Below are positions 45,879 to 64,000 of a stretch of DNA of 64,000 bases, piece after piece; within the stretch, counting starts at the first letter, position 1, and each line of letters starts with the position of its first letter. The notes beneath the pieces are model-generated. The model ran no database searches. It worked only from the letters and a program-made list of their open reading frames with translations, and was not told where the DNA came from. The DNA is from Thiofilum sp. (GTDB taxonomy: Bacteria > Pseudomonadota > Gammaproteobacteria > Thiotrichales > Thiotrichaceae), in contig NZ_JADJTF010000001.1 of assembly GCF_016711335.1 (NCBI RefSeq), forward strand, positions 2,321,401 to 2,385,400, in the 5' to 3' direction. Position numbers and translations under genes: made by a program.

Positions 45879-47038
45879 TCTTGTAGAATTCCCTTAATGG
45901 CGTTGATAACTCTTGTTTGGTCTTCATCTGTCATTTTGGTGTAGAGAGGCAAACTCACCGCTTGTTCATACGTTGCTAGACTATAAGGGAAATCTTGTGG
46001 TTGTAAGTGATAGCTATCACGCCAATAGGGATGTAGGTGTAAAGGGATGAAATGAACACTGCAACCAATGCCATGTTCTGCCATCGCTTCGATAAATTGG
46101 TTACGCTCGATACCCATTTGTGGGGTTAAGCGTAGCACATATAAATGCCAAGCGTGTAAATCGCCATCCAGTGCGCTAGGTGGGAAGAGCAGGGGTAAGT
46201 CTGCGAGTTCACGGGTGTAGCGTTCTGCCATTTCCTGACGACGTTGTTGGAAACGGTTAGCTTTCTGTAATTGATGGATACCAAGTGAAGAAGCTAAATC
46301 AGTAAGATTGTATTTGAAGCCGGGGGCTACCACTTCATAATGCCAAGCGGGTTTGTTGGAGGTGTAGCGGTCGAAAGCATCGCGGCTAATACCATGTAAG
46401 CGCATGATTTTGCAGCGGGCGGCTATTTCTGGGTTGCGTGTCACGATCATGCCGCCTTCGCCGGTGGTGATGGTTTTGGTGGCGTAGAAGCTGAAAACGG
46501 TGACATCGCTATCCAGTGAGCCAATTAGCTGATCTTGGTAGCGCGTGGGAAGAGCGTGGGCGGCATCTTCCACTACTTTGAGGTTGTGTTTACGGGCAAT
46601 CGTTAAAATGCTCGTCATATCACAGGCTAAACCGGCGAAGTGGACGGGGATGATCGCTTTGGTTTTAGGGGTAATGGCTGCTTCAATTTTGTTGGGGTCG
46701 ATATTGAAGGTGTTGGGGGCAATATCAACAAAGACAGGGTGTGCGCCTAAGTACCGGATGACTTCGGCGGTGGCTGTGAAGGTGTAGGGTGTGGTGATGA
46801 CTTCATCGCCTGCGCTGATACCGATAGCTTCGAGTGCTAAATGCAAGCCAGCAGTGGCAGAGTTGACGGAAATGGCTTCACAATTACCACCGATGAATTC
46901 AGCGAAGTCGGATTCAAAGCGTTTGGTTTTGGGACCGGTTGTTACCCAGCCTGAGCGCAGAGAGTCAATAACTTCGTTAATTTCAGCTTCGTCAATATCA
47001 GGTAGGGCAAAAGGCAAGAAGTTATTGAGGTTGTTCAT
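45839..47038 (-). CDS. DegT/DnrJ/EryC1/StrS-family PLP aminotransferase (PglE-like sugar 4-aminotransferase)
   Basis: [23 protein letters not shown] (PLP Lys region), and a GxxGxxG-like N-terminus. Confidence 0.8.
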
Positions 47039-47625: not shown

Positions 47626-48746
47626 TGATTTATCTCGAATGAATTTACTACTGAACTAATTAGCATGGCTTGATCTGTTGTTAGAGTAGGTGATATTGGC
47701 AGACTTATTACTTGACGATGTATCTGTTCTGTCAATAAATATTCATGATTGTTCCACTGCTTAAAGGCTTGTTGTTGGTGAGGTGCTATAGGATAATGAA
47801 TGAGTGTTTGTATGCCAGCAATATTTAAATGTTTTTGTAATGATTCGCGATTTGATGTTCGGATGACATATAGATGAAAAACATGTCCATCTAGTGATTC
47901 TAATGTGCTTTCTAAAGAAATGGGTGTCTGAATGTCTTTATGGTTAATATGCTTGGTGTAAGCAAGTGCAACCTCTTTACGATGTTTTATTTCTTTATCA
48001 AGATACTTGAGTTTTACTCGCAATATAGCCGCCTGCATTTCATCGAGTCGGCTATTTAGACCCTGATAGATATTTTCATATTTTTTATGACTGCCGTAGT
48101 TGCCAATAGCTCTGACCGTATTAGCTAACTCATCATCGTTAGTCGTAACCGCACCTGCATCACCTAATGCACCTAAGTTCTTACCAGGGTAGAAACTAAA
48201 ACCTGAAGCATCCCCCCAGCTACCTGCTCTTTTCCCATTAAGAGATGCTCCATGGGCTTGAGCAGAGTCTTCTAGAACTAACAAGTTGTGAGTTTTAGCT
48301 ATAGCAATAATTTCAGGCATTGGAGCAAGCTGACCGTATAAATGTACCGCGAGTATGGCTTTTGTGTTAGGCGTAATTGCTTGTTCAATTAGATCTGGAT
48401 TGATATTGTAAGTAGTAATGTCAGGCTCTACTAATATAGGTATTAGTCTGTTCTCCGTGATAGCCAATATAGAAGCAATGTAAGTATTTGCTGGAACAAT
48501 AATCTCATCACCTTCCTTAAGCTTTCCTAGTTCTTTCCAAGCTCGTAATACTAGAATGAGAGCATCTAAGCCATTGGCAACACCGATGCAATGTTTAGTT
48601 CCACAATAGTCAGAAAATTCACGCTCAAAGCTGTACACTTGCTCACCTTGAATATACCAGCCAGAGTCAATAACCTGCCTAACTGCTTCTGTTAATTCAT
48701 CCTTGTATTGTGAATTAACTGCTTTTAGATCTAAAAAATTAATCAA
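47622..48746 (-). CDS. DegT-family aminotransferase (FdtB/QdtB-like dTDP-3-keto-6-deoxyhexose 3-aminotransferase)
   Basis: PLP motifs ([18 protein letters not shown]). Sits between FdtC-like and GNAT genes, downstream of FdtA. Confidence 0.7.
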
Positions 48747-53568: not shown

Positions 53569-54638
53569 GACGAAATCCTTTCACGCAAATGTTGCACAAT
53601 TCTTAATGAAGCTTGACCTCCACCATATAATTGATGGGGATCCTGCACTTTTCTACCGATGTTACGTATCACTGCATCAGCGATTTTTAGGTTATCCGCG
53701 CCAACTAACTCGTTGACACCCATTTCAATGAGTTCTACCCATTCAGTTTGATCACGCATAGTGATGCAGGCTTTGCCAAAAAAGAATGCTTCCTTTTGTA
53801 CTCCACCACTATCAGTGAGTACTAATTGACACTTATCCAATAGCCAGACCATTTCAAAATATCCTACTGGATCGACCAAGCGAACATTCAGTTTTAGCCC
53901 TTGCTGTGTAATGAGTTTTCGTGTGCGGGGATGCAAGGGTAAGATAACGGGTACTTGTTCTCGATGAATCTGATTAAGAGCTAGTACAATATTAGCTAAA
54001 CGTTCTGGATTATCAGTATTTTCAGCTCGATGAAGAGTGGCTAGAACGAATTGTTCTGGTAGAGAAATATTAGGTGGCGCAATAGCATTCTTGGAGAATA
54101 GCAGAGCAGCATCTTGCATAACATCGCCAACTTTTAACACTTCCACATTTTTTGTAGCAAAGCCTTCATTATTCAAGTTTTTAACAGCAGTATCAGTGGG
54201 GCAAAACAGCAAATCACTAATTTGATCCGTCAATATTCTGTTGATCTCTTCAGGCATTTGCATATTGAAGCTCCGCAACCCTGCTTCTACATGAGCCACC
54301 GGAATATGCAGTTTGGCGGCAGCTAATGCACCTGCTAACGTGGAATTAGTGTCGCCATACACCAGTACGCGATCAGGTTTGTGGGATAATAATGCCTGTT
54401 CGATTTCGGCAAGCATACGACCAGTCATTTCCCCATGACTACTACTGTTGATATTTAGTTTAATGTCTGGTTTCGGAATGCCAAGCTGATTGAAGAAAAT
54501 ATCTGACATATTAGCATCGAAGTGTTGACCGGTATGTAGCATAATTTCTTTGATGCCACTGGTTTTTCGAATAGCATGAGAAATCACACTGGCTTTGATA
54601 AATTGAGGGCGTGCCCCAATAATGGTGATTATTTTCAT
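53565..54638 (-). CDS. wecB: UDP-N-acetylglucosamine 2-epimerase (non-hydrolysing) WecB
   Basis: MKIITIIGARPQFIK ... HVEAGLRS ... TDSGGVQKEA. Confidence 0.8.
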   Translation of the reverse strand: MKIITIIGARPQFIKASVISHAIRKTSGIKEIMLHTGQHFDANMSDIFFNQLGIPKPDIKLNINSSSHGEMTGRMLAEIEQALLSHKPDRVLVYGDTNSTLAGALAAAKLHIPVAHVEAGLRSFNMQMPEEINRILTDQISDLLFCPTDTAVKNLNNEGFATKNVEVLKVGDVMQDAALLFSKNAIAPPNISLPEQFVLATLHRAENTDNPERLANIVLALNQIHREQVPVILPLHPRTRKLITQQGLKLNVRLVDPVGYFEMVWLLDKCQLVLTDSGGVQKEAFFFGKACITMRDQTEWVELIEMGVNELVGADNLKIADAVIRNIGRKVQDPHQLYGGGQASLRIVQHLRERISS

Positions 54639-54693
54639 AAATAATACTCTTGAATTCAATTATCAATTTCATTCTATCGAAAAGTTGTATGCA

Positions 54694-55974
54694 TTAACGG
54701 AAAAATGAATGCAGATGAGAGGTAGATTTTTTGAGGTTAGTATATTTTATTAGCACATTTCGATTTTGTTTTTCATGTAATACACAAGTGATATTAAGTA
54801 GGACAATGATTGACATCAATTGATACCCTGAAAAAATATTATTTGTCGTCATGGTTACACAAGAAAAAATAATAAAAATGAACAGTGTTATGCCCCACTG
54901 GGATGAAATATTACGCATTGCAAGGCGTAAAAGATAAATTATATAAAATCCAAATAGAAAAATACCTAAAATTCCATACCTTTGAATTATCAAAGCGTAT
55001 TCAGAGTCTATAACAGTTGAAAATTCAGACTTGGCTGGTCCCATACCAAATAATGGTGATTCATAAAAACGTTCTATGGCTAAGGAGAAATTATCTAATC
55101 TAATGTTCAAACTTTCATTTTCCCCCTCAGATGTTAGTTGAGCACCCAAATAAATATACTGTAGCTCCAATGAAAATACTAAGAAAATGATTGAGGTAAT
55201 GAGTAATGTAAGTAAAATAATTTTAATTATGAAATTTAATTTATAGAAGAATAAAAAATAGAAACTGAATGTTGATAGAAATGCACCCAAAATGGTTCTA
55301 CTTTGAGTTGACAATATCAAAAAGGAAAATAGCAATGCAAAAATTAAGTATTTATATGTTTTTTCTTTTAAAAATAATGTGGTAAAGTAAATACTAAAAA
55401 AGCTAGCAATGACTGCGCCGATATTAGGATCAGAGCCAGTAATGGTTATTCGATATCCAGCAAGAGCAGATGCCAAATGTGAACTATCCGCACCTAAGTA
55501 TTTCTTCAGGAGCCATTCCGCAAGGAAAGGTATATTTAGAACTTGAATGTAGCCGATCAATAAAACAAGTATGGCAGACCAAAATAGTAATTTATGGAGA
55601 TGTGATAAGCTCGCTATTCCAATAAAAGTTATAGCCATCATGTAAGGTACAAACTGTAAGTATTTTATTGACTCAATAATATCCCCAGAAACAGGCGATG
55701 AATAACCAGCCGCCCAAGAAAATAAAGCAGAAATCATAACCATTAACCCTAATGCTAATGGCATAAGTGATGCAGTATTAAAAAAAGATTTCTTTGATAA
55801 ATGTAATAAAATTATTAAGAAAACTATGGGGCTTATGAGTGTGACGAGATAAATATGTATATCACCAAAGGCTATGGAGGGTAATGTAATTGAGGATAGT
55901 AGCCCTAAAAATAGTAAATTAACCATTAATTTATTTGGCCGAGTTGTTTTCTTGATATTTTTATCGTACTGCAT
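54694..55974 (-). CDS. O-antigen polymerase (Wzy-like) multi-TM protein
   Basis: 426-aa, very AT-rich, 10-12 TM helices with a large periplasmic loop. Located between wecB and wzx. Confidence 0.5.
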   Translation of the reverse strand: MQYDKNIKKTTRPNKLMVNLLFLGLLSSITLPSIAFGDIHIYLVTLISPIVFLIILLHLSKKSFFNTASLMPLALGLMVMISALFSWAAGYSSPVSGDIIESIKYLQFVPYMMAITFIGIASLSHLHKLLFWSAILVLLIGYIQVLNIPFLAEWLLKKYLGADSSHLASALAGYRITITGSDPNIGAVIASFFSIYFTTLFLKEKTYKYLIFALLFSFLILSTQSRTILGAFLSTFSFYFLFFYKLNFIIKIILLTLLITSIIFLVFSLELQYIYLGAQLTSEGENESLNIRLDNFSLAIERFYESPLFGMGPAKSEFSTVIDSEYALIIQRYGILGIFLFGFYIIYLLRLAMRNISSQWGITLFIFIIFSCVTMTTNNIFSGYQLMSIIVLLNITCVLHEKQNRNVLIKYTNLKKSTSHLHSFFR

Positions 55975-56068
55975 TTTAATTTAAGTGGACTTTATGGGGA
56001 TTTAAATAAATTAACTTTTGATTTTTTAATTTTACAAAAAAGTGTTTCTGTATTACTTGAGTGTGATT

Positions 56069-57469
56069 TTACGTAAATGTAAAATTTATTGCTTGTCGTG
56101 CAATGTCACGAAAAATGAACAAAGCAAATACTAATAAAACACCCCATAACACCATAAGCATTACAACATGGCTTTCACCCAATAAGCTAGCAGCAATAGC
56201 TAACATCACGCACATAAGAGAGAAAAAATAGAGTGCTAATCTGGGTATTGGTTGCCACACCAATATGGCAAATTCAGTGCGGCATACAAAGAATATCCAG
56301 AAAGAAGCACAAGTACTCGCTGCTGCACCCGCTGCACCGTAATGGGGAATCAACAGGTAATTTCCTATAAGATTTGAAATTAAAGCGATTACTGAAGCAG
56401 CTAGCGCAAAAAGCGTTTTCTTAGTGATACCAATACCTACAACCGTAGTTTCAGACAGGGTATAAAGCAATGGAAATCCAAGACAAGCGGCAATAATGTA
56501 CTGTATGTTATGATAAGCATCTGGCAAGATAAGGTTTATCACCCATGAAAATAGCCCAACAAAGCAAAAGATCAATATTACAATAAATAACACATAATTC
56601 GTAACTTGCTGCACTTTATCCAAATTTTTTCCTGAACTTACCCACTTATAAACAGTGGGAGCCCATACTGTCGTGAAAATACTTTGAAAAATAGTCGCTA
56701 CTGCGGCAAAACTTACGGCGACTGAATAAATACCTAGTTCTTCATAGCTAGATAAAGCACGTAAGAAAACTTTATCTACTGAGATTAACCCCCAATAAGC
56801 TAATCCTCCAAAAATAAGTGGGATGGAATAGCGTAACATGCTAAGAATTTTTTCGTTATCAAATTTTTTCGGAATAGCTGCTAAAATTTCTTTGCGTGTA
56901 TTCCATCCATAAATTATGCAGACTAATAAAATAGATAGAGTGTGTGCTGCGATAATTTGCAGGGTTGTGAAGTTAGAGTCTAGTAATACATATGAACTAA
57001 TTAGGAAAAGAAAAAACACTTTTGGTAGAACTTGGCTCATTGAAAAAGCCAGCCCTCTTTCTTGCATTCGTAATATCAGGGATAAAAAGCGAGAAATAAA
57101 TGAGGCTAGCAGGCAGAGCAAGATTAAGATGCCTAAATGCTTATCATCCAAATTAAATAGCCATATCGATATTTTTTCTGGTTGAAATGAAAAGATCACA
57201 AGTGTAAATGAAAGTAGTAAAAAGCCAACTCCTATAGTGTTTTTTAGTAGCAAGGGTGTATTGTTGGATTCATGAAACTCGCGAACGTAGGCTTGATCTA
57301 GTCCTAAGCTGAAAATTAATAGTACAAAACTAATGGTTACTTGCAGCATAGACAAGCGACCAATGTCATCTGGCGAAAAAAACCATGTAATAACAGGTAA
57401 GGTAATTAGACCTATTGCTGCTGAACCAATAGGTCCAATAGAAAAATGTAAAATCTTTTTAGTGTTCAA
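56069..57469 (-). CDS. wzx: Wzx-type O-unit flippase (MOP/oligosaccharide flippase family)
   Basis: 466-aa ORF with 12-14 TM helices and polysaccharide-biosynthesis-protein topology. Confidence 0.7.
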   Translation of the reverse strand: MNTKKILHFSIGPIGSAAIGLITLPVITWFFSPDDIGRLSMLQVTISFVLLIFSLGLDQAYVREFHESNNTPLLLKNTIGVGFLLLSFTLVIFSFQPEKISIWLFNLDDKHLGILILLCLLASFISRFLSLILRMQERGLAFSMSQVLPKVFFLFLISSYVLLDSNFTTLQIIAAHTLSILLVCIIYGWNTRKEILAAIPKKFDNEKILSMLRYSIPLIFGGLAYWGLISVDKVFLRALSSYEELGIYSVAVSFAAVATIFQSIFTTVWAPTVYKWVSSGKNLDKVQQVTNYVLFIVILIFCFVGLFSWVINLILPDAYHNIQYIIAACLGFPLLYTLSETTVVGIGITKKTLFALAASVIALISNLIGNYLLIPHYGAAGAAASTCASFWIFFVCRTEFAILVWQPIPRLALYFFSLMCVMLAIAASLLGESHVVMLMVLWGVLLVFALFIFRDIARQAINFTFT

Positions 57470-57512
57470 CTAAAGACCTTGAGTAAGTATTTTTTACGCT
57501 TTTGATTGGGCT

Positions 57513-58643
57513 TCATGCGAAAAACTCGCTAACCGCTTGAGTAACAGCTTGTTGAGTTTTACGTTCCATTCCAAACCAAATAGGTAGTCTGACTAAGCGT
57601 TCGCTGTCTTGCGTTGTATAGCGGTCAGTACCATGAAACCGCCCAAACTGCTTACCCGCTGGTGCACTGTGCAATGGAATATAATGGAATACAGAAAGAA
57701 TATTGTTTTTACTCATATGTGCTAAGAATGCTGAGCGTTGCTCTATATCTCTGCATTTGAGGTAAAACATATGCCCGTTTTGCTGGCATTCGGCTGGAGT
57801 AATGGGGAGTGAAAGTATCCCGTGCTGTTGCAAATCATTGAAAGCAGTATAGTAGTGATCCCACGTAGTTAAGCGATTGTTATTGATAACTTCTGCACGT
57901 TCAAGTTGTCCCCAAAGGTAAGCTGCTTGGATTTCTGAGGGTAGGTAACTACTGCCAATATCAACCCAAGTATACTTATCTACCATGCCACGAAAGAAGA
58001 GACTACGGTTTGTGCCTTTTTCGCGTATGATTTCAGCACGCTCTATAAACCGCTCATCATTGATTAATAGTAAGCCACCTTCACCGCCGCTGGTATAGTT
58101 CTTGGTTTCATGGAAACTGTATGTGCCGATATGTCCAATTGTGCCTAAAGGTTTGCCTTTATAGGTTGCCATCATGCCTTGAGCAGCATCTTCAACAACA
58201 AACAAATTATGACGCTGGGCAATGTCCATGATGGTGTCCATTTCACACCCAACGCCTGCATAGTGTACGGGGACAATGGCTTTTGTTTTGGGAGTAATTG
58301 CCGTTTCAATAAGGGTCTCGTCAATATTCATGGTATCAGGGCGAATATCCACGAAAACGATCTTCGCCCCTCTTAGCACAAAAGCATTGGCAGTACTTAC
58401 AAAAGTATAGCTAGGCATGATGACTTCATCGCCGGGTTCAATACCGATGAGGATAGCCGCCATTTCCAGCGCATGTGTGCAGGAGGTCGTAAGCAAAGCT
58501 TTTTTGCAGCCCGTTGTCTCCTCAAACCAGCGATGGCAACGTTTGGTGAATTCGCCGTCACCTGAGATTTTCGAGCTTTTCATTGCTTCCAGAACATATT
58601 GCTCTTCATTTCCTGTCAGAGGTGGTTTGTTAAATGGAATCAT
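57513..58643 (-). CDS. dTDP-4-amino-4,6-dideoxyhexose aminotransferase (WecE/VioA-like, DegT family)
   Basis: SYTFVSTANAFVLRGAKIVFVDI ... YSFHETKNYTSGGEGG, related to the WecE family. Confidence 0.75.
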   Translation of the reverse strand: MIPFNKPPLTGNEEQYVLEAMKSSKISGDGEFTKRCHRWFEETTGCKKALLTTSCTHALEMAAILIGIEPGDEVIMPSYTFVSTANAFVLRGAKIVFVDIRPDTMNIDETLIETAITPKTKAIVPVHYAGVGCEMDTIMDIAQRHNLFVVEDAAQGMMATYKGKPLGTIGHIGTYSFHETKNYTSGGEGGLLLINDERFIERAEIIREKGTNRSLFFRGMVDKYTWVDIGSSYLPSEIQAAYLWGQLERAEVINNNRLTTWDHYYTAFNDLQQHGILSLPITPAECQQNGHMFYLKCRDIEQRSAFLAHMSKNNILSVFHYIPLHSAPAGKQFGRFHGTDRYTTQDSERLVRLPIWFGMERKTQQAVTQAVSEFFA

Positions 58644-59203
58644 TTTTGATACTCCTCAAGAAATTGTTTTTCCAGAACTAATAGTTCTTTACTGCGATCT
58701 TTAATTTTTTTAGCGGGATTGCCAACATAGATGCTCCATGCTTCAGTTGACTGACGCACTAACGACATTGCGCCCACTGATGTTCCTTCGGCTAAGGTAA
58801 CGCCGGGCATTATCATTGAGCCAGCTCCAACAATAGAGTGTTCGGCAATGTTAACTGTTGATATAAACTCATTTTTATATTTTTTAGATATATTAGAGTT
58901 TGTCATGGTCATTCCACTGTAATCGTCCGACTGTGTGAATATTTTTACGCCGTATGCAAAAGTACAAAAATCACCCACTTTCATGCCTAGTTGACCGCCT
59001 GCAAATAAACACATTGGTGTTATGTGTACAAATCTTCCGATTTTGATTTTTCCAGAAATTACACAAAAATCATCTATTCTTGAGTTGTCACCAATTTCTA
59101 TTTGATTATGATTATAGATGCTGGCTTTTTTGCTGATTTTTACGTTTTTACCGATTTTCTTAAAGCCAAGTTCTAATAGTTCTTGTTCAGTGTAATAAGC
59201 CAT
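58640..59203 (-). CDS. Hexapeptide-repeat sugar N-acetyltransferase (VioB/WeeI-like)
   Basis: LbH repeats IGDNSRIDDFCVISGKIKIGRFVHI... Overlaps the stop/start of flanking genes (operon). Confidence 0.65.
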   Translation of the reverse strand: MAYYTEQELLELGFKKIGKNVKISKKASIYNHNQIEIGDNSRIDDFCVISGKIKIGRFVHITPMCLFAGGQLGMKVGDFCTFAYGVKIFTQSDDYSGMTMTNSNISKKYKNEFISTVNIAEHSIVGAGSMIMPGVTLAEGTSVGAMSLVRQSTEAWSIYVGNPAKKIKDRSKELLVLEKQFLEEYQK

Positions 59204-59207
59204 GGCT

Positions 59208-60266
59208 TTAATCCTCGAAAATTTTTTGTAACTGTGATTTGAGCGTTTCTTTGTTAAAATAATTTTTTATAATTTCAGAGTTCTTCAGAGATTGCTCTGA
59301 ACTCAGGCTAGTCAGATTTTCTTCTGAACCAATGTTGTCAAAATTAAAAATTTTAAGGTTCATTTCTGAAAGGGTTTGCCAAGGTGTTATATCATTGCGC
59401 ATATAGACCTTCTTACCTAAGCCCAACAGCGAGATGGTGTTACCCATTGCTTGCTGGCGTTTGTGTGCGAAAATCGCGATGTCTATATTGGCAAGAAGCT
59501 CTAAATATTTATCGAATGGCATAAATTCTGTGAGGGGAATGAATTTTTCACCAAAAATTGCTTTACCTTTTTCGATAATCTGTTTGGCATGGTTTTGATC
59601 ACCGTAAGAGAGTGGGCAGTATATTTTTATATCTTCGTTCTTGTAAGGAACTAACTTTTCAAGAATTTCTTCATGGTTGTTGCTGGGATCGGCGGAGTTT
59701 CCTATCAATATATTGGTACTTTGATCATGTCTTGGGGGCAGATCGTAATCAGTAAAAGTATTGCTAAGATACATGATGCACTCATGATATTTACCTTTTG
59801 TACCGTACCATTGTTGTGCTAGGTGATAATCGCCTTCAATGTAAGTTACAAAATTACCTATACGTTTTATGATAAAACTGCGAAGTAGCTCTTTTAGTTT
59901 ATAGTTTCTGTCATTATTGCCTAATTGATGGTAGTAAAGATCACCACCCCACATAACCCAGTAGCATTTTTTTAGAATCCAAGGTGTAAAAAACAATAAG
60001 ATAACTAACTTTATATCAAATAAACCATGCAGAATAACTTTATCAGCTTGATGTATTTTCAGTAGAGCTTGGAGATAATATGAAAGCCCATGTCTAACTG
60101 TTTTCTTCGCAATATATATATTTTTATCTTTTTTTATAAGCTCTTCTTCCATGCCGCTAGTGAGTAGAAAGAAATGCTTATAATAATCAAAATTTTCTTT
60201 GATTAGATTAATGAATTTCGGAGAAAAAGTGTTGCAAGGTAGAATGTGAAGGATTTTTTTTGGCAT
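59208..60266 (-). CDS. GT56 4-alpha-L-fucosyltransferase-like (WecF family, dTDP-Fuc4NAc:lipid transferase)
   Basis: VMWGGDLYY, ILIGNSADPSNNHEEILEKL, PLSYGD; the equivalent E. coli WecF segments are HIWGADLY, ILVGNSGDRSNEHIAAL and PMGY (from memory). Confidence 0.6.
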   Translation of the reverse strand: MPKKILHILPCNTFSPKFINLIKENFDYYKHFFLLTSGMEEELIKKDKNIYIAKKTVRHGLSYYLQALLKIHQADKVILHGLFDIKLVILLFFTPWILKKCYWVMWGGDLYYHQLGNNDRNYKLKELLRSFIIKRIGNFVTYIEGDYHLAQQWYGTKGKYHECIMYLSNTFTDYDLPPRHDQSTNILIGNSADPSNNHEEILEKLVPYKNEDIKIYCPLSYGDQNHAKQIIEKGKAIFGEKFIPLTEFMPFDKYLELLANIDIAIFAHKRQQAMGNTISLLGLGKKVYMRNDITPWQTLSEMNLKIFNFDNIGSEENLTSLSSEQSLKNSEIIKNYFNKETLKSQLQKIFED

Positions 60267-60305
60267 TTGGCGACTAGTTAATTTTAGGTTTGAGGTTGGC
60301 TTTAT

Positions 60306-61883
60306 TTATTTGCTCAAGATTATCTGTACATAATCCTGTTGAATGGCTGTCAAATCCGCCCCCATCGGCAAACTCATCACACGCTGCGCTCTATCCTTCG
60401 CAATCGGCGTACAATCCCCACAACACAAATCCCGATAAGCAGGCTGTTCATTCAAAGGCACAGGATAATGCACCGCTGTTGGAATCCCAGCTTCCCTAAA
60501 CCGCGCTTCCACCTCACTGCGGTTTTCCACCAACACCGTATACTGCGCAAACACACTCGTCCGATCATCCCGCTGCTGTATTCGCTGCACCCCAGCCTCA
60601 TCCATTAAGGCATTATACCGCTGCCCAATGACAACCCGCTGCTCCACTTCCCAATCAAACCGTTCCAGCTTCGCCAGCACCACCGCACATTGCAGCGTAT
60701 CCATCCGCCCACCCACACCCACACGGGTATGGTAATAACGCCGACTCTGCCCATGAATCCGAATCTCCCGACAAGCCTGATAAATGGCATCATCATCGGT
60801 AAAAATCGCCCCACCATCCCCATAACAACCCAAGGGCTTACTCGGAAAAAAACTAGTACAACCAATCGTAGAAAGATGACAACTCTTCCTACCCTTATAC
60901 GTCGCCCCGAAACTCTGCGCTGCATCCTCAATCACTGGCAAATTATACTTCGCCGCAATCGCATTAATCTCATCCATATCCGCAGGTTGACCATACAAAC
61001 TCACTGGCATAATCGCCTTAGTCCGTTCAGTAATTTTAGCCTCAATCAAACCCGCATCCATATTACAAGTATCTGGCTCAATATCCACAAACACCGGCTT
61101 TGCACCCAACAACACAATCACCTCAGCCGTCGCCACAAAGGTAAACGGCGTGGTAATCACCTCATCCCCCGCACCAATCCCCAATGCCATCAAGCTGATC
61201 AACAAGGCTTCCGTGCCACTGGCCACCGTAATGCAATGCTTCGCACCCGTATAAGCGGCGAGCTTCTTTTCCAGTAGTTCCACTTCTGGCCCCATGATAT
61301 ACGTGCCATGTTGCAAAACCGCATGAATATTACGCTGTAATTGCGGACGGATGGCACGTTGCTGGACAGCCAAATCAATAAACGGCATCTTTTCTGGCTT
61401 TTTTGACCATGCTGCCAAACCTTGCTCCAGTAACTCTTTCGGATGCAAGGCAAGTATCTTTGAGGATTTCAAAAACCACTTATCACGGGTGATAATGACC
61501 GGGTTAGGCAAATACTGCTCTGCCAGAAAACCAATTAACTGATCTTCCAGATCATCCCCGACCTCAGCATCCAGCGTAGCCAACTCATCCCCCACTTGTG
61601 GCAGTGGCTTGAGCAAGCTACTCAATTCTTGTAACAAGACACGAGCCGCCTGAATCGATTCACGCCGATTCTGAGCATCTTTTGCCAAGGCACGCTCAAG
61701 CAAGTAATACACCGTACTCAAGGTATGGGGTGCATACCAAGCCTCTACTTCACCATTACGTACCAACTCCAGCACGCTCACCGCATCTGCGTAATAAGCC
61801 CCGCGTGCAGCCAAAGCATCAACCAAGACATTGGTATCAAAAACGAGCTGTATTTGAGTGTGTTTATAGCTATTAACGACCAA
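60306..61883 (-). CDS. In-frame fusion ORF: N-terminal PIN-domain (VapC-like) plus C-terminal WbpE-like UDP-2-acetamido-2-deoxy-3-oxo-D-glucuronate aminotransferase
   Basis: N-terminus LVFDTNVLVDAL...LEDQLIGFLAEQ...ITRDKWFLK (four PIN acidic positions). From MPFIDLAVQQRAI onward near-colinear with WbpE (LQHGTYIMGPEVELLEKKLAAYTGAKHC ... DAAQSFGATYKGRKSC ... FFPSKPLGCYGDGGAIFT). The junction contains a T6 run (61399-61404); one extra base would create a stop just after the WbpE ATG. Confidence 0.6.
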   Translation of the reverse strand: MVVNSYKHTQIQLVFDTNVLVDALAARGAYYADAVSVLELVRNGEVEAWYAPHTLSTVYYLLERALAKDAQNRRESIQAARVLLQELSSLLKPLPQVGDELATLDAEVGDDLEDQLIGFLAEQYLPNPVIITRDKWFLKSSKILALHPKELLEQGLAAWSKKPEKMPFIDLAVQQRAIRPQLQRNIHAVLQHGTYIMGPEVELLEKKLAAYTGAKHCITVASGTEALLISLMALGIGAGDEVITTPFTFVATAEVIVLLGAKPVFVDIEPDTCNMDAGLIEAKITERTKAIMPVSLYGQPADMDEINAIAAKYNLPVIEDAAQSFGATYKGRKSCHLSTIGCTSFFPSKPLGCYGDGGAIFTDDDAIYQACREIRIHGQSRRYYHTRVGVGGRMDTLQCAVVLAKLERFDWEVEQRVVIGQRYNALMDEAGVQRIQQRDDRTSVFAQYTVLVENRSEVEARFREAGIPTAVHYPVPLNEQPAYRDLCCGDCTPIAKDRAQRVMSLPMGADLTAIQQDYVQIILSK

Positions 61884-62181
61884 AATAACGTTCCTCTAGG
61901 GCATCCTGTAACATTTGCTCATCATCACCAATACTAGAGCTAGGGCGCGTCAAAGCTAATCTACCCAACAGTTGATTTAACCGCTCCTGAAGACTTCCGG
62001 GCTTTGCTGGCGGTACTTTTCCTAATGTTTCAGGTACAGGCAAATCGACGAACCAATCGCGAGCTTCCAGAAGTGCCTCGTCCGGTATTTCCACCTGGTA
62101 GCGCATGGGGGCATCGGGTTTTAAATAAATCGGATGTACAAACTTTACCTGACCGTGTTGAACAATAATTTCTGCTTGCAT
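61873..62181 (-). CDS. DUF104-like putative antitoxin (upstream partner of the PIN domain)
   Basis: ATG at 62181: MQAEIIVQHGQVKFVHPIYLKPDAPMRYQVEIPDEALLE resembles DUF104 antitoxins (VYENGVLKPLE..L.EG..V.V.I). Overlaps the PIN start by 11 nt. Confidence 0.45.
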   Translation of the reverse strand: MQAEIIVQHGQVKFVHPIYLKPDAPMRYQVEIPDEALLEARDWFVDLPVPETLGKVPPAKPGSLQERLNQLLGRLALTRPSSSIGDDEQMLQDALEERYFGR

Positions 62182-62191
62182 GGTATTATCC

Positions 62192-62767
62192 TTACGTTGT
62201 GACCTGACCCGCTTTAAGCATATAGGCTTTGCCGGTATGCGGGCAAATTGCCATCCCGTCACCGGTCAGTGGCAAATCCAGTTTTTCACCGTGTTCGCTC
62301 ATCCAGCCAATCTGTTTGGCAGGTACACCCACCATCAGCGCGTAAGCAGGTACATCTTTGTTAACAACAGTACCTGCACCGATAAAGGCAAATTCTCCAA
62401 TGGTAACACCACAAACGATGGTACAGTTAGCCCCTAACGTTGCACCACGTTTGACTAGGGTATTGCGGTATTCATCCTTACGCTCCACTAATGCCCGTGG
62501 GTTATAAACATTGGTAAATACCATGCTAGGGCCGCAAAACACTCCATCTTCCAGTATTACATTGTCATACACAGAGACATTGTTCTGCACTTTGCATTGA
62601 TTGCCGATCACGACCTTGTTGCCAACGAAGACATTTTGCCCTAGGGATACACCATTACCAATACGAGCACCTCCGCATACATGTGCCCAGTGCCAAACCC
62701 GACTACCGGAACCAATTTGAGCACCTTCATCAACGATAGCAGTGGGGTGGATAAAAATGTCATTCAC
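62192..62767 (-). CDS. wbpD: UDP-2-acetamido-3-amino-2,3-dideoxy-D-glucuronate N-acetyltransferase (WbpD-like, LbH)
   Basis: [49 protein letters not shown] is close to P. aeruginosa WbpD. Confidence 0.75.
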
Positions 62768-62769
62768 AC

Positions 62770-63836
62770 CTAAAACTCCAATGGCAAAGAGATAGTCTTA
62801 CCATCACGTGCCGACAAATAAGCTGCAATCAATAGTTCCAGCGACTTTAGACCTTCACGCCCATCCGTCTCAGGTTCAGCATGACCACGCATTACCTCTA
62901 CTATATTGTTGTAATACAGCGGATGCCCAAAGCCATACACCGAAGTGGTTTCATAATTGGCACTCTGAATGTGTGCATCATAATCACGTGGTTCGTCAAA
63001 CTGCCATAGCTGAATGTCGTTAACCGCAACTCCACCAATGCGTACTGTGCCTTTATCACCTAAGATCGTGATTGAACCTTCTAAGTTTTTGGGATAAGTC
63101 AGCATAGTAACTGCCATAGAACCTAGTACCCATTGCGCCAGCGCACGTTTAATACGCCCGTATCTTCCACCTCAATATCACGGGTGGTGCTGGTCATGGC
63201 TTGAACTTTATCTACTGGACCTATGAGCCAATCTAATAAATCAACATAATGGCTAGCTTGATTCATGAATGCACCGCCATCGAATTCCCATGTACCTCGC
63301 CAGCCATTACCTTGGTCATAGTAGGATTGAGGACGCGTCCAAAATACATTGAGATGCACCATGTGAATTTTGCCGAAACGTCTTTCCTCAGTGGCGCGTT
63401 TGAGTAATTGTAAGGTGGTATTGCGGCGGTTCTGCTTGACTACAAATAACCGAACGCCTGCCTCATCACAGGCTTTTACCATGCGTACCCCATCAGACCA
63501 ACGAGTAGCCATCGGCTTTTCAGTGATGACATGTACACCGTATTTGGCAGCTAATACAGCTTGGTCGGGATGTAGACCACTGGGTGTACATAACGCCACC
63601 AGATCAGGTTGGTGGCGCTGTAACATGTCTTCCATACGAAGGTACGCGGGTACATCGAAGCGCTCTGCATAAGGAGCTGATTGAGTAGGATCAATATCAC
63701 AAACAGCGACTAGCTCCAGATCTTGTTGATGCTGCTCAATAGAGCCAAAATGATTTTTGGCAATACGCCCGCAACCTACAACAGCTATGCGGATTTTACG
63801 GTCAGTAATGGTAGGGAACATAGTTATAGACGCCAT
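62770..63836 (-). CDS. wbpB: UDP-N-acetyl-2-amino-2-deoxy-D-glucuronate oxidase (WbpB-like, Gfo/Idh/MocA); frame broken near 63130-63135
   Basis: N-terminal [16 protein letters not shown] (Rossmann); C-terminal [30 protein letters not shown] ... [13 protein letters not shown] ... [22 protein letters not shown]. The two ORFs (63123..63836 and 62770..63117) join as RWRNG|[14 protein letters not shown] if one G is added at the ggg run. Confidence 0.7.
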
Positions 63837-64000
63837 ACGGTAATGTGAAGTGCCTGCAAAGCAGCAGGATCGTATAGAGATTTGATGTCAGTGAGTACCG
63901 GTTTACTACCCCGTAGCAATGCATGCAATTCTTGTGGCTTCAGTTTAGTAAATTCTTGGTGCGCTACAGCAACAATTAAGGCATCAACAGGAGCTTGAGG
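63824..64000 (-). CDS. wbpA: UDP-N-acetyl-D-glucosamine 6-dehydrogenase (WbpA-like) C-terminus (3' partial in window)
   Basis: Minus-strand translation ...[58 protein letters not shown] is a typical nucleotide-sugar dehydrogenase C-terminal tail. Stop overlaps the wbpB start by 13 nt. Confidence 0.6.
   Translation of the reverse strand, partial: PQAPVDALIVAVAHQEFTKLKPQELHALLRGSKPVLTDIKSLYDPAALQALHITVWRL

Follow-up and report, generated by a model that had tools for sequence, protein, structure and literature searches.

The window analysed here is a 64,000-nucleotide (nt) stretch of a Thiofilum sp. genome (contig NZ_JADJTF010000001.1 of assembly GCF_016711335.1), and the locus that concerns us lies close to its end, where a small open reading frame (ORF) of 102 amino acids (aa) is followed by a 525-aa ORF in which a PIN domain is joined in frame to a complete WbpE-type aminotransferase (Table 1). 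All genes of the locus are on the minus strand, in the order wbpB, wbpD, 102-aa ORF, 525-aa PIN-WbpE ORF and then a block of low G+C content. The small ORF starts 10 nt past the stop codon of wbpD and runs 11 nt into the beginning of the PIN-WbpE ORF. These coordinates confirm the first-pass annotation of the sequence, which had placed a small gene with this overlap between wbpD and wbpE, and had given it a length of 103 aa that is corrected here to 102. The TTG at 61881-61883 is the sole start codon in the open frame of the 525-aa ORF, and both this codon and a Shine-Dalgarno-like GAGGA fall within the small ORF, at its conserved ...LEERYFGR terminus. Other loci likewise start 11 codons before the QLVFDTN motif, overlapping the stop of the small ORF, with TTG, GTG or ATG as the start codon. 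In the NCBI annotation of a Thiofilum sp. metagenome-assembled genome (MAG) the small ORF is a 'hypothetical protein', and the fusion is an 'aminotransferase class I/II-fold PLP-dependent enzyme' (PLP, pyridoxal phosphate).

Both parts of the 525-aa ORF are recognised by sequence comparison, in agreement with the fusion as first annotated. The C-terminal part matches the Pfam family DegT_DnrJ_EryC1 at aa 179-519 (E 5.5e-121), and the Pseudomonas aeruginosa WbpE structure 3nu7 aligns with it end to end (E 1.3e-127, chain residues 3-345), such that residue 167 of the query corresponds to residue 3 of WbpE. The WbpE entry 8e75 in the PDB also gives a full-length alignment (E 1.2e-133), the translation of the aminotransferase domain contains the PLP lysine in an FFPSKPLG motif, and homologues carry the JGI name 'UDP-2-acetamido-2-deoxy-ribo-hexuluronate aminotransferase'. 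From its sequence we infer that this domain is WbpE, with UDP-2-acetamido-2-deoxy-3-oxo-D-glucuronate as its predicted substrate, and the neighbouring wbpB and wbpD fit this assignment.

The N-terminal part matches PIN_3 (PF13470) at aa 13-117, with 38.5 bits against a Pfam cut-off of 27 (E 2.3e-9). An AlphaFold2 (AF2) model of this part, built on 62 fused homologues, has the alpha/beta/alpha fold of PIN domains at a predicted local distance difference test score (pLDDT) of 89 and a predicted template modelling score (pTM) of 0.86, and pLDDT falls only in the last few residues. In Foldseek comparisons the best PDB matches of the model are VapC toxins, namely Mycobacterium tuberculosis VapBC (5x3t_B and 7vwo_A), PAE2754, PAE0151 and VapC20; the top matches are all VapC/PIN structures at a probability of 1.0, with target template modelling (TM) scores of 0.64-0.72 among the VapC-type structures. 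In the 62 fused proteins, which span all sub-families, D16 never varies, and conservation reaches at least 90% at D111, E113, D114 and T132; D134 is below this 90% cut-off, and is kept in every intact locus of sub-family 1 that has the small ORF. As modelled, the domain has a VapC-type fold and intact predicted acidic active-site residues. In five pairs of close relatives the ratio of nonsynonymous to synonymous substitution rates (dN/dS) is 0.07-0.18 for PIN and 0.06-0.14 for the aminotransferase and, as judged from these ratios, the PIN domain is under purifying selection. An exhaustive phmmer search found a gap between the fusion family and stand-alone PIN_3 proteins of ~140 aa, which are ~30% identical to it; because the alignments to these stand-alone proteins cover query residues 12-154, no more than ~6-10 residues are left as a linker to WbpE. 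Of the stand-alone proteins, P0038 is the nearest relative, and its gene follows an overlapping Phd/YefM antitoxin gene in a classical toxin-antitoxin (TA) island. A word-index search with PIN alone returned 5 fragments, no NCBIfam model matched the PIN domain, no match to it was found in the plasmid records searched, and PADLOC gave no relevant match to the fused protein.

The in-frame fusion of PIN to WbpE is genuine and conserved. The 525-aa ORF recurs unchanged in two further assemblies, GCA_049643105.1 from NCBI and an independent one that Logan made from run SRR28062878. Over ~10 kb, the T6 run within the linker included, both are 100% identical to the window, without gaps. In a scan of one genome per species, PIN reads directly into the aminotransferase at 12 loci, 8 of which are intact ORFs of ~520-580 aa. 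Among the carriers are Thiolinea, Dechloromonas, Competibacteraceae, a deltaproteobacterial MAG and Ca. Accumulibacter phosphatis, the genome of which (NC_013194.1) is finished. The junction is also read through in the isolate Halochromatium glycolicum DSM 11080 and in one deltaproteobacterial copy, in each of which the ORF breaks further on within the aminotransferase. A metagenome scan gave 34 further read-through loci, bringing the number to ~45 with those from genomes. Searching with the full 525-aa protein recovered fused relatives in abundance, since 74 of the 120 best matches (clusters at 90% identity) were fused proteins of 488-543 aa, among them proteins of Thiothrix and Crenothrix polyspora. 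Counted among these 120 best matches, the fused clusters number at least 74, and the fusion can no longer be called unprecedented, as it had been at first. The junctions are unrelated in nucleotide sequence between lineages, with the linker varying in sequence and length and the frame being kept. At the position of the WbpE methionine the codon is ATC, ATA, ATT, CTN or GTN in most lineages, with no homopolymer there, and because a start codon is absent at this position, WbpE can be made only as a fusion in most lineages. The WbpE ATG (61386-61388) is kept in the window, in loci L006, L007 and L022, and in a few other lineages.

The small ORF is identical to 'hypothetical protein WAQ53_14020 [Thiofilum sp.]'. 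Its homologues form 25 clusters, all of 102-107 aa, free of Pfam domains and 'hypothetical' in all sources, and by sequence comparison it is a member of an unnamed family. It is found directly upstream of the fusion in ~40 loci, and in each of the four PIN sub-families that we examined a Pfam-negative ORF of 98-105 aa lies immediately upstream, overlapping the start of the fusion by 4-14 nt. The upstream ORFs of the different sub-families share an N-terminal pattern and, in part, a C-terminal ...E(E/K)(R/H)..GR end. The partner and PIN diverge in parallel: in L021 their identities to the window proteins are 33% and 31%, and in L018 the partner is undetectable and PIN is 25% identical. At E<=10, Pfam gave nothing for 17 family members, for three relatives from other sub-families or for isolated N-terminal peptides. 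The small protein had been labelled DUF104-like in the first-pass annotation, and this identity is not supported: Pfam, a PDB profile search, hhalign and BLASTP against AF2212 gave nothing in its favour, and the AF2 model had no usable fold. The hhalign comparison with AF2212 gave a probability of 0.2% and an E of 0.28, placing the two N-termini in the register of a pattern that is visible by eye, and BLASTP against AF2212 gave no match. This pattern, M..E.iy..G.l.l..P..l......v.v.vP, is shared without statistical support by the N-terminal ~35 residues of the small protein and the DUF104/COG2880/AF2212-like antitoxins (2nwt; PMC2701414), which are alike to it in being partners of PIN toxins; the small protein differs from them in being longer (~100 aa) and in having a conserved helical C-terminus that AF2212 lacks.

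Loss of the partner coincides with loss of the PIN active site. D16, D111, D114 and D134 are all kept in 31 of 31 non-redundant intact loci of sub-family 1 with the small ORF, whereas this set is substituted in all four loci without any trace of the small ORF: TRD is changed to TCG in L012 and to SKN in L050, and GDDLED to GERPDS in L013 and to GGRLDQ in L015. The association between partner loss and residue loss has a Fisher p of 8.5e-5, with kinship among the loci ignored; one further locus with the small ORF was set aside, being ambiguous on a frameshifted contig. Between L013 and L015 the dN of PIN is six times that of the aminotransferase, against a ratio of about one in intact pairs.

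The small ORF and PIN also behave as a single exchangeable cassette. Over 72 fused proteins the identity of the PIN domain is decoupled from that of the aminotransferase, with values of 22% and 89% respectively in Thiothrix P0199, and of 58% and 62% in P0220. When the window is compared with the Thiothrix locus L018 at the protein level, WbpB is 87-90% identical, WbpD 94% and the aminotransferase 88%, whereas PIN is 25% identical and the small ORFs have no detectable similarity. In blastn against the same locus only the blocks 63821..62153 and 61355..60352 align, such that flanks of 80-89% identity end at sharp edges on either side of the cassette. These comparisons indicate that the small ORF and PIN have been swapped as a unit between otherwise orthologous operons. 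The corresponding empty site is found in L056, from a sister sample, which has flanks 87-92% identical to those of L018 and an ordinary 368-aa wbpE that begins 4 nt after wbpD. L048 and L049 (L049 2223-3705) have kept the small ORF together with an intact PIN of ~182 aa; most of the aminotransferase is deleted, and PIN still bears the first residues of WbpE (…LSFVD). On this evidence, the cassette in L048 and L049 survived as a stand-alone pair after loss of the enzyme.

Table 1. Features of the PIN-WbpE locus, in positions of the window
Feature	Position	Strand	Basis
wbpB, Gfo/Idh/MocA dehydrogenase, split by a 1-nt frameshift	62770..63836	-	ORF and domain search, comparison with relatives
wbpD, hexapeptide acetyltransferase, upstream flank of the cassette	62192..62767	-	ORF, domain search, comparison with Thiothrix
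Small partner ORF, putative antitoxin, 102 aa plus stop	61873..62181	-	ORF calls, homologues
Fused PIN-WbpE ORF, 525 aa, TTG start	60306..61883	-	ORF, Pfam, identical copies in other assemblies
PIN (VapC-like) domain, aa 1-159	61407..61883	-	Pfam PIN_3, AF2 model, Foldseek
Linker SKKPEK, aa 160-165, contains the A6/T6 run	61389..61406	-	PIN model, junctions across lineages
T6 homopolymer (A6 on the coding strand)	61399..61404	.	Read from the sequence
WbpE-type aminotransferase domain, aa 166-525	60306..61388	-	Pfam DegT, alignments to WbpE in the PDB
Translation start of the fusion: GAGGA 61892-61896, 8-nt spacer, TTG 61881-61883	61881..61896	-	Read from the sequence
Exchangeable cassette: most of the small ORF, PIN, linker, first ~11 WbpE codons	61356..62152	-	blastn against the Thiothrix locus

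Several further loci carry the cassette in other arrangements. In the deltaproteobacterial loci L010 (3871-5833), L011 and L037 a cassette of the same sub-family (PIN 59% and small ORF 50% identical) is fused to a much more divergent aminotransferase, 50% identical and with an insertion; wbpB and wbpD are not nearby, and the gene comes after an ABC-transporter-like cluster. In Halochromatium glycolicum DSM 11080 (L014, 493-3632) the order is wbpB, small ORF, PIN, an aminotransferase that is cut after ~residue 184, and wbpD; either this isolate genome carries a disrupted or rearranged copy, or the locus has been misassembled. On the metagenome contig L003 (101-1720) WbpB and WbpD are fused in a protein of 539 aa directly upstream of the small ORF and PIN-WbpE, and the aminotransferase part is frameshifted. 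A gene for a flavin adenine dinucleotide-dependent oxidoreductase of the DAO family is frequent in wbp clusters (L008 4570-5640; L019, L021 and L056), lying on one side or the other of wbpD, towards wbpB or towards the cassette.

In the window itself, the G+C content is 31-37% over 54400-60399 and 46-55% over 60400-64000, which holds wbpB, wbpD, the cassette and wbpE, with a sharp step at ~60300. The low-G+C block holds genes for a GT56 glycosyltransferase, an acetyltransferase, a WecE-like aminotransferase (57513-58643), a flippase and Wzy. The PIN-WbpE gene is the last of the conserved block, adjoining a serotype-specific block of probable horizontal origin. The wbpB gene is split by a frameshift at 63123-63131 (minus strand) into ORFs of 237 and 115 aa at a G3 run (…AATGGGTACTAGG…), where G4 would restore …RNGVLGSMAV…, as in the intact Thiolinea orthologue; megablast gave no match between wbpB and L006 and tblastn was used instead. 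This split is probably a homopolymer assembly error, and a real pseudogene is less likely. Two more genes for DegT-family aminotransferases are present at 45896-46990 and 47679-48743 (minus strand), with 35-37% identity to the WbpE-type protein P0226, which is itself an unfused 361-aa WbpE of ~81-85% identity from a Thiofilum contig. Both short-read contigs that carry the fusion (JBARPM010000029.1 and SRR28062878_11214) end within wbpD, at 62348-62445. Together, P0226 and these contig ends suggest that another set of wbp genes is present elsewhere in this genome and breaks short-read assemblies.

We consider it likely, although by no means assured, that the locus is a two-gene, VapBC-like cassette of TA type, inserted precisely where the stop of wbpD gives way to the first wbpE codons, with PIN fused to WbpE. 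As such, the TA module proposed in the first-pass annotation gains comparative support from the co-loss of partner and active site, the swapping of cassettes and the VapC-like fold matches; its DUF104 antitoxin label is not supported. In this mechanism the small protein would bind and neutralise the PIN nuclease, with its conserved C-terminal helices probably making the contact, and WbpE would keep its activity at the C-terminal end of the fused chain. Translation of the fusion is coupled to that of the small ORF by the weak TTG start and the Shine-Dalgarno-like motif within the partner gene, an arrangement that would favour an excess of partner over toxin. Because wbpE is without its own start in most lineages, a premature stop or a frameshift in the toxin part would cost the cell WbpE as well; since WbpE needs read-through of PIN, only missense changes would disarm the toxin without loss of the enzyme, which matches the retention of a dead PIN domain at the partner-less loci. 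The fusion would thereby lock the cassette into the operon for UDP-2,3-diacetamido-2,3-dideoxy-mannuronic acid (UDP-ManNAc3NAcA), and the cassette may in turn stabilise this operon, or respond to its shut-off in the manner of an addiction or abortive-infection module. The benefit may fall to the cell, through operon stabilisation, abortive infection or control of mRNA, or to the module alone.

A number of our observations weigh against such a TA cassette. In Pfam, NCBIfam, PADLOC and the sequences of the PDB, nothing marks the small protein as an antitoxin or a DNA-binding protein, although a missing domain match would still be compatible with DNA binding. Its AF2 model is poor (pLDDT 65) and contains only two C-terminal helices, at residues 64-75 and 83-100, with residues 1-50, where a DUF104-like antitoxin would have an AbrB-like beta-strand fold, at a low-confidence pLDDT of 39-61 and no strands predicted. 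The pair lies in the middle of an operon with no promoter of its own evident, a scan for promoters and terminators having given nothing above chance. The four partner-less loci represent only about three independent events, and the joint loss of partner and catalytic residues would also be expected for a non-toxic enzyme of two subunits. Dead PIN domains stay fused to WbpE, and the domain may therefore have a structural role. Finally, the WbpE ATG is kept in the clade of the window, so some free WbpE could arise there by internal initiation.

The main rival account is that PIN and the small protein make up an accessory module of the pathway that is not toxic, for example a ribonuclease (RNase) that processes or tunes the mRNA of the operon, or a scaffold that ties WbpE to WbpB and WbpD; the small protein would then serve as its regulatory subunit or chaperone. 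The position of the pair within an operon without its own promoter, the lack of a known antitoxin domain in the small protein and the retention of dead PIN domains would all be in keeping with this account, the WbpB-WbpD fusion in L003 demonstrates that other fusions occur in the pathway, and the co-loss of partner and active site fits any obligate two-component function. We nevertheless regard it as rather unlikely. Sub-families only 20-25% identical replace one another wholesale where the flanking enzymes are 88-94% identical, and the cassette is absent from other close relatives; such a pattern of swapping and of presence and absence is typical of conflict or selfish modules and is unlike that of a pathway component. 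Furthermore, both the structures and the stand-alone homologues that come closest to PIN are TA toxins, and most WbpE enzymes work without the cassette.

Less likely still is that in the clade of Thiofilum and Thiolinea WbpE is mostly translated alone from the internal ATG, with the read-through product being minor. The ATG is retained in the window, at L006, L007 and L022 and in a few other lineages, and the A-rich leader ahead of it could permit some initiation, but no Shine-Dalgarno motif precedes it (AAGCCAGAAAAGATG), the close relatives P0182 and P0184 have Ile at the position of the WbpE Met, most lineages lack a start codon at this position, and PIN and the aminotransferase are not separated by a stop in any relative. 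Least probable by far is that the T6 run at 61399-61404 is an assembly artefact for a true T7 and that PIN and WbpE are separate overlapping genes, as the first-pass annotation had allowed: an extra T would indeed yield a plausible overlapping pair (...SKKARKDAVY*, with a TGA that overlaps the WbpE ATG at 61386-61388), and the split of the nearby wbpB at its G3 run (63127-63129), where G4 restores the frame, makes a homopolymer indel in the window likely, but this explanation was rejected given two assemblies of the same population that are identical to the window across the run, ~45 divergent loci and 74 protein clusters that hold the frame across unrelated junctions, including junctions without T6, and the lack of a start codon for a separate WbpE in most carriers.

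Building on the TA-type cassette, we tentatively raise the possibility that the wbpD-wbpE junction is a hotspot for polymorphic PIN/antitoxin cassettes which are swapped by recombination and have become entrenched by the loss of their stop codon and the takeover of the start of an enzyme on which the cell relies for its surface polysaccharide. The fusion would then guard the cassette against deletion and nonsense mutation, and may couple release of the RNase to the shut-off or replacement of the O-antigen or capsule operon, as in phage attack or serotype switching.

Polymorphic toxin/immunity cassettes exchange a variable toxin domain together with its cognate immunity gene, and the scaffold stays conserved. 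The window locus is alike in that a variable toxin-like domain and an adjacent small gene are exchanged and the rest is conserved, but here the variable domain is N-terminal, cytoplasmic and on a metabolic enzyme, without a secretion or delivery domain. With P. aeruginosa WbpE (3nu7, 3nyu) of the UDP-ManNAc(3NAc)A pathway the window protein shares a full-length match of 360 aa, the PLP-lysine motif and the wbpB/wbpD gene order, and differs in its 165-aa N-terminal PIN extension and in the absence of an own initiation codon from most fused lineages. Also among the closest known systems are the type II TA modules of VapBC type (M. tuberculosis VapBC 5x3t and 7vwo; the PIN_3/COG1569 group, PMC5499597), in which a small upstream gene likewise overlaps the PIN gene; also in common are the VapC-like fold and conserved acidic residues of the window PIN, and a partner that co-varies with PIN and is lost together with its active site. 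Unlike these modules, the window PIN is covalently joined to a biosynthetic enzyme of 360 aa, its partner has no recognisable DNA-binding or antitoxin domain, an autoregulated promoter of its own is not evident, and the pair lies inside a polysaccharide operon, with toxicity here being a prediction from sequence. Full-text literature searches that combined PIN or VapC with O-antigen, WbpE, DegT or aminotransferase turned up no account of such a protein. What comes closest is one line of a table in Makarova et al. 2009 (PMC2701414), where an aminotransferase is listed as a frequent neighbour of PIN genes, and a PIN-aminotransferase fusion is not mentioned by Matelska et al. 2017 (PMC5499597).

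The architecture is thus common in databases, where it is annotated solely as an aminotransferase, and it is neither an oddity of one genome nor an artefact; current annotation overlooks both the PIN domain and the family of its small partner. Chromosomal TA modules are abundant, and the reason for their persistence is debated. In the case described here a VapC-type domain that has lost its own stop is now the N-terminus of a conserved enzyme of lipopolysaccharide or capsule synthesis across Gamma-, Beta- and Deltaproteobacteria, in a pair that is still exchanged like a mobile cassette and that decays only by missense changes once the partner is lost. The natural dead variants, the empty sites and the several types of cassette make the system experimentally tractable. 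If the PIN domain is an active toxin, this would be a natural case of a selfish module entrenched by translational fusion to a useful gene, and one in which RNA cleavage is tied to the biosynthesis of surface polysaccharide; and if the junction between wbpD and wbpE is indeed a hotspot at which such cassettes become entrenched, this would be a mode of anchoring TA modules that has no earlier description.

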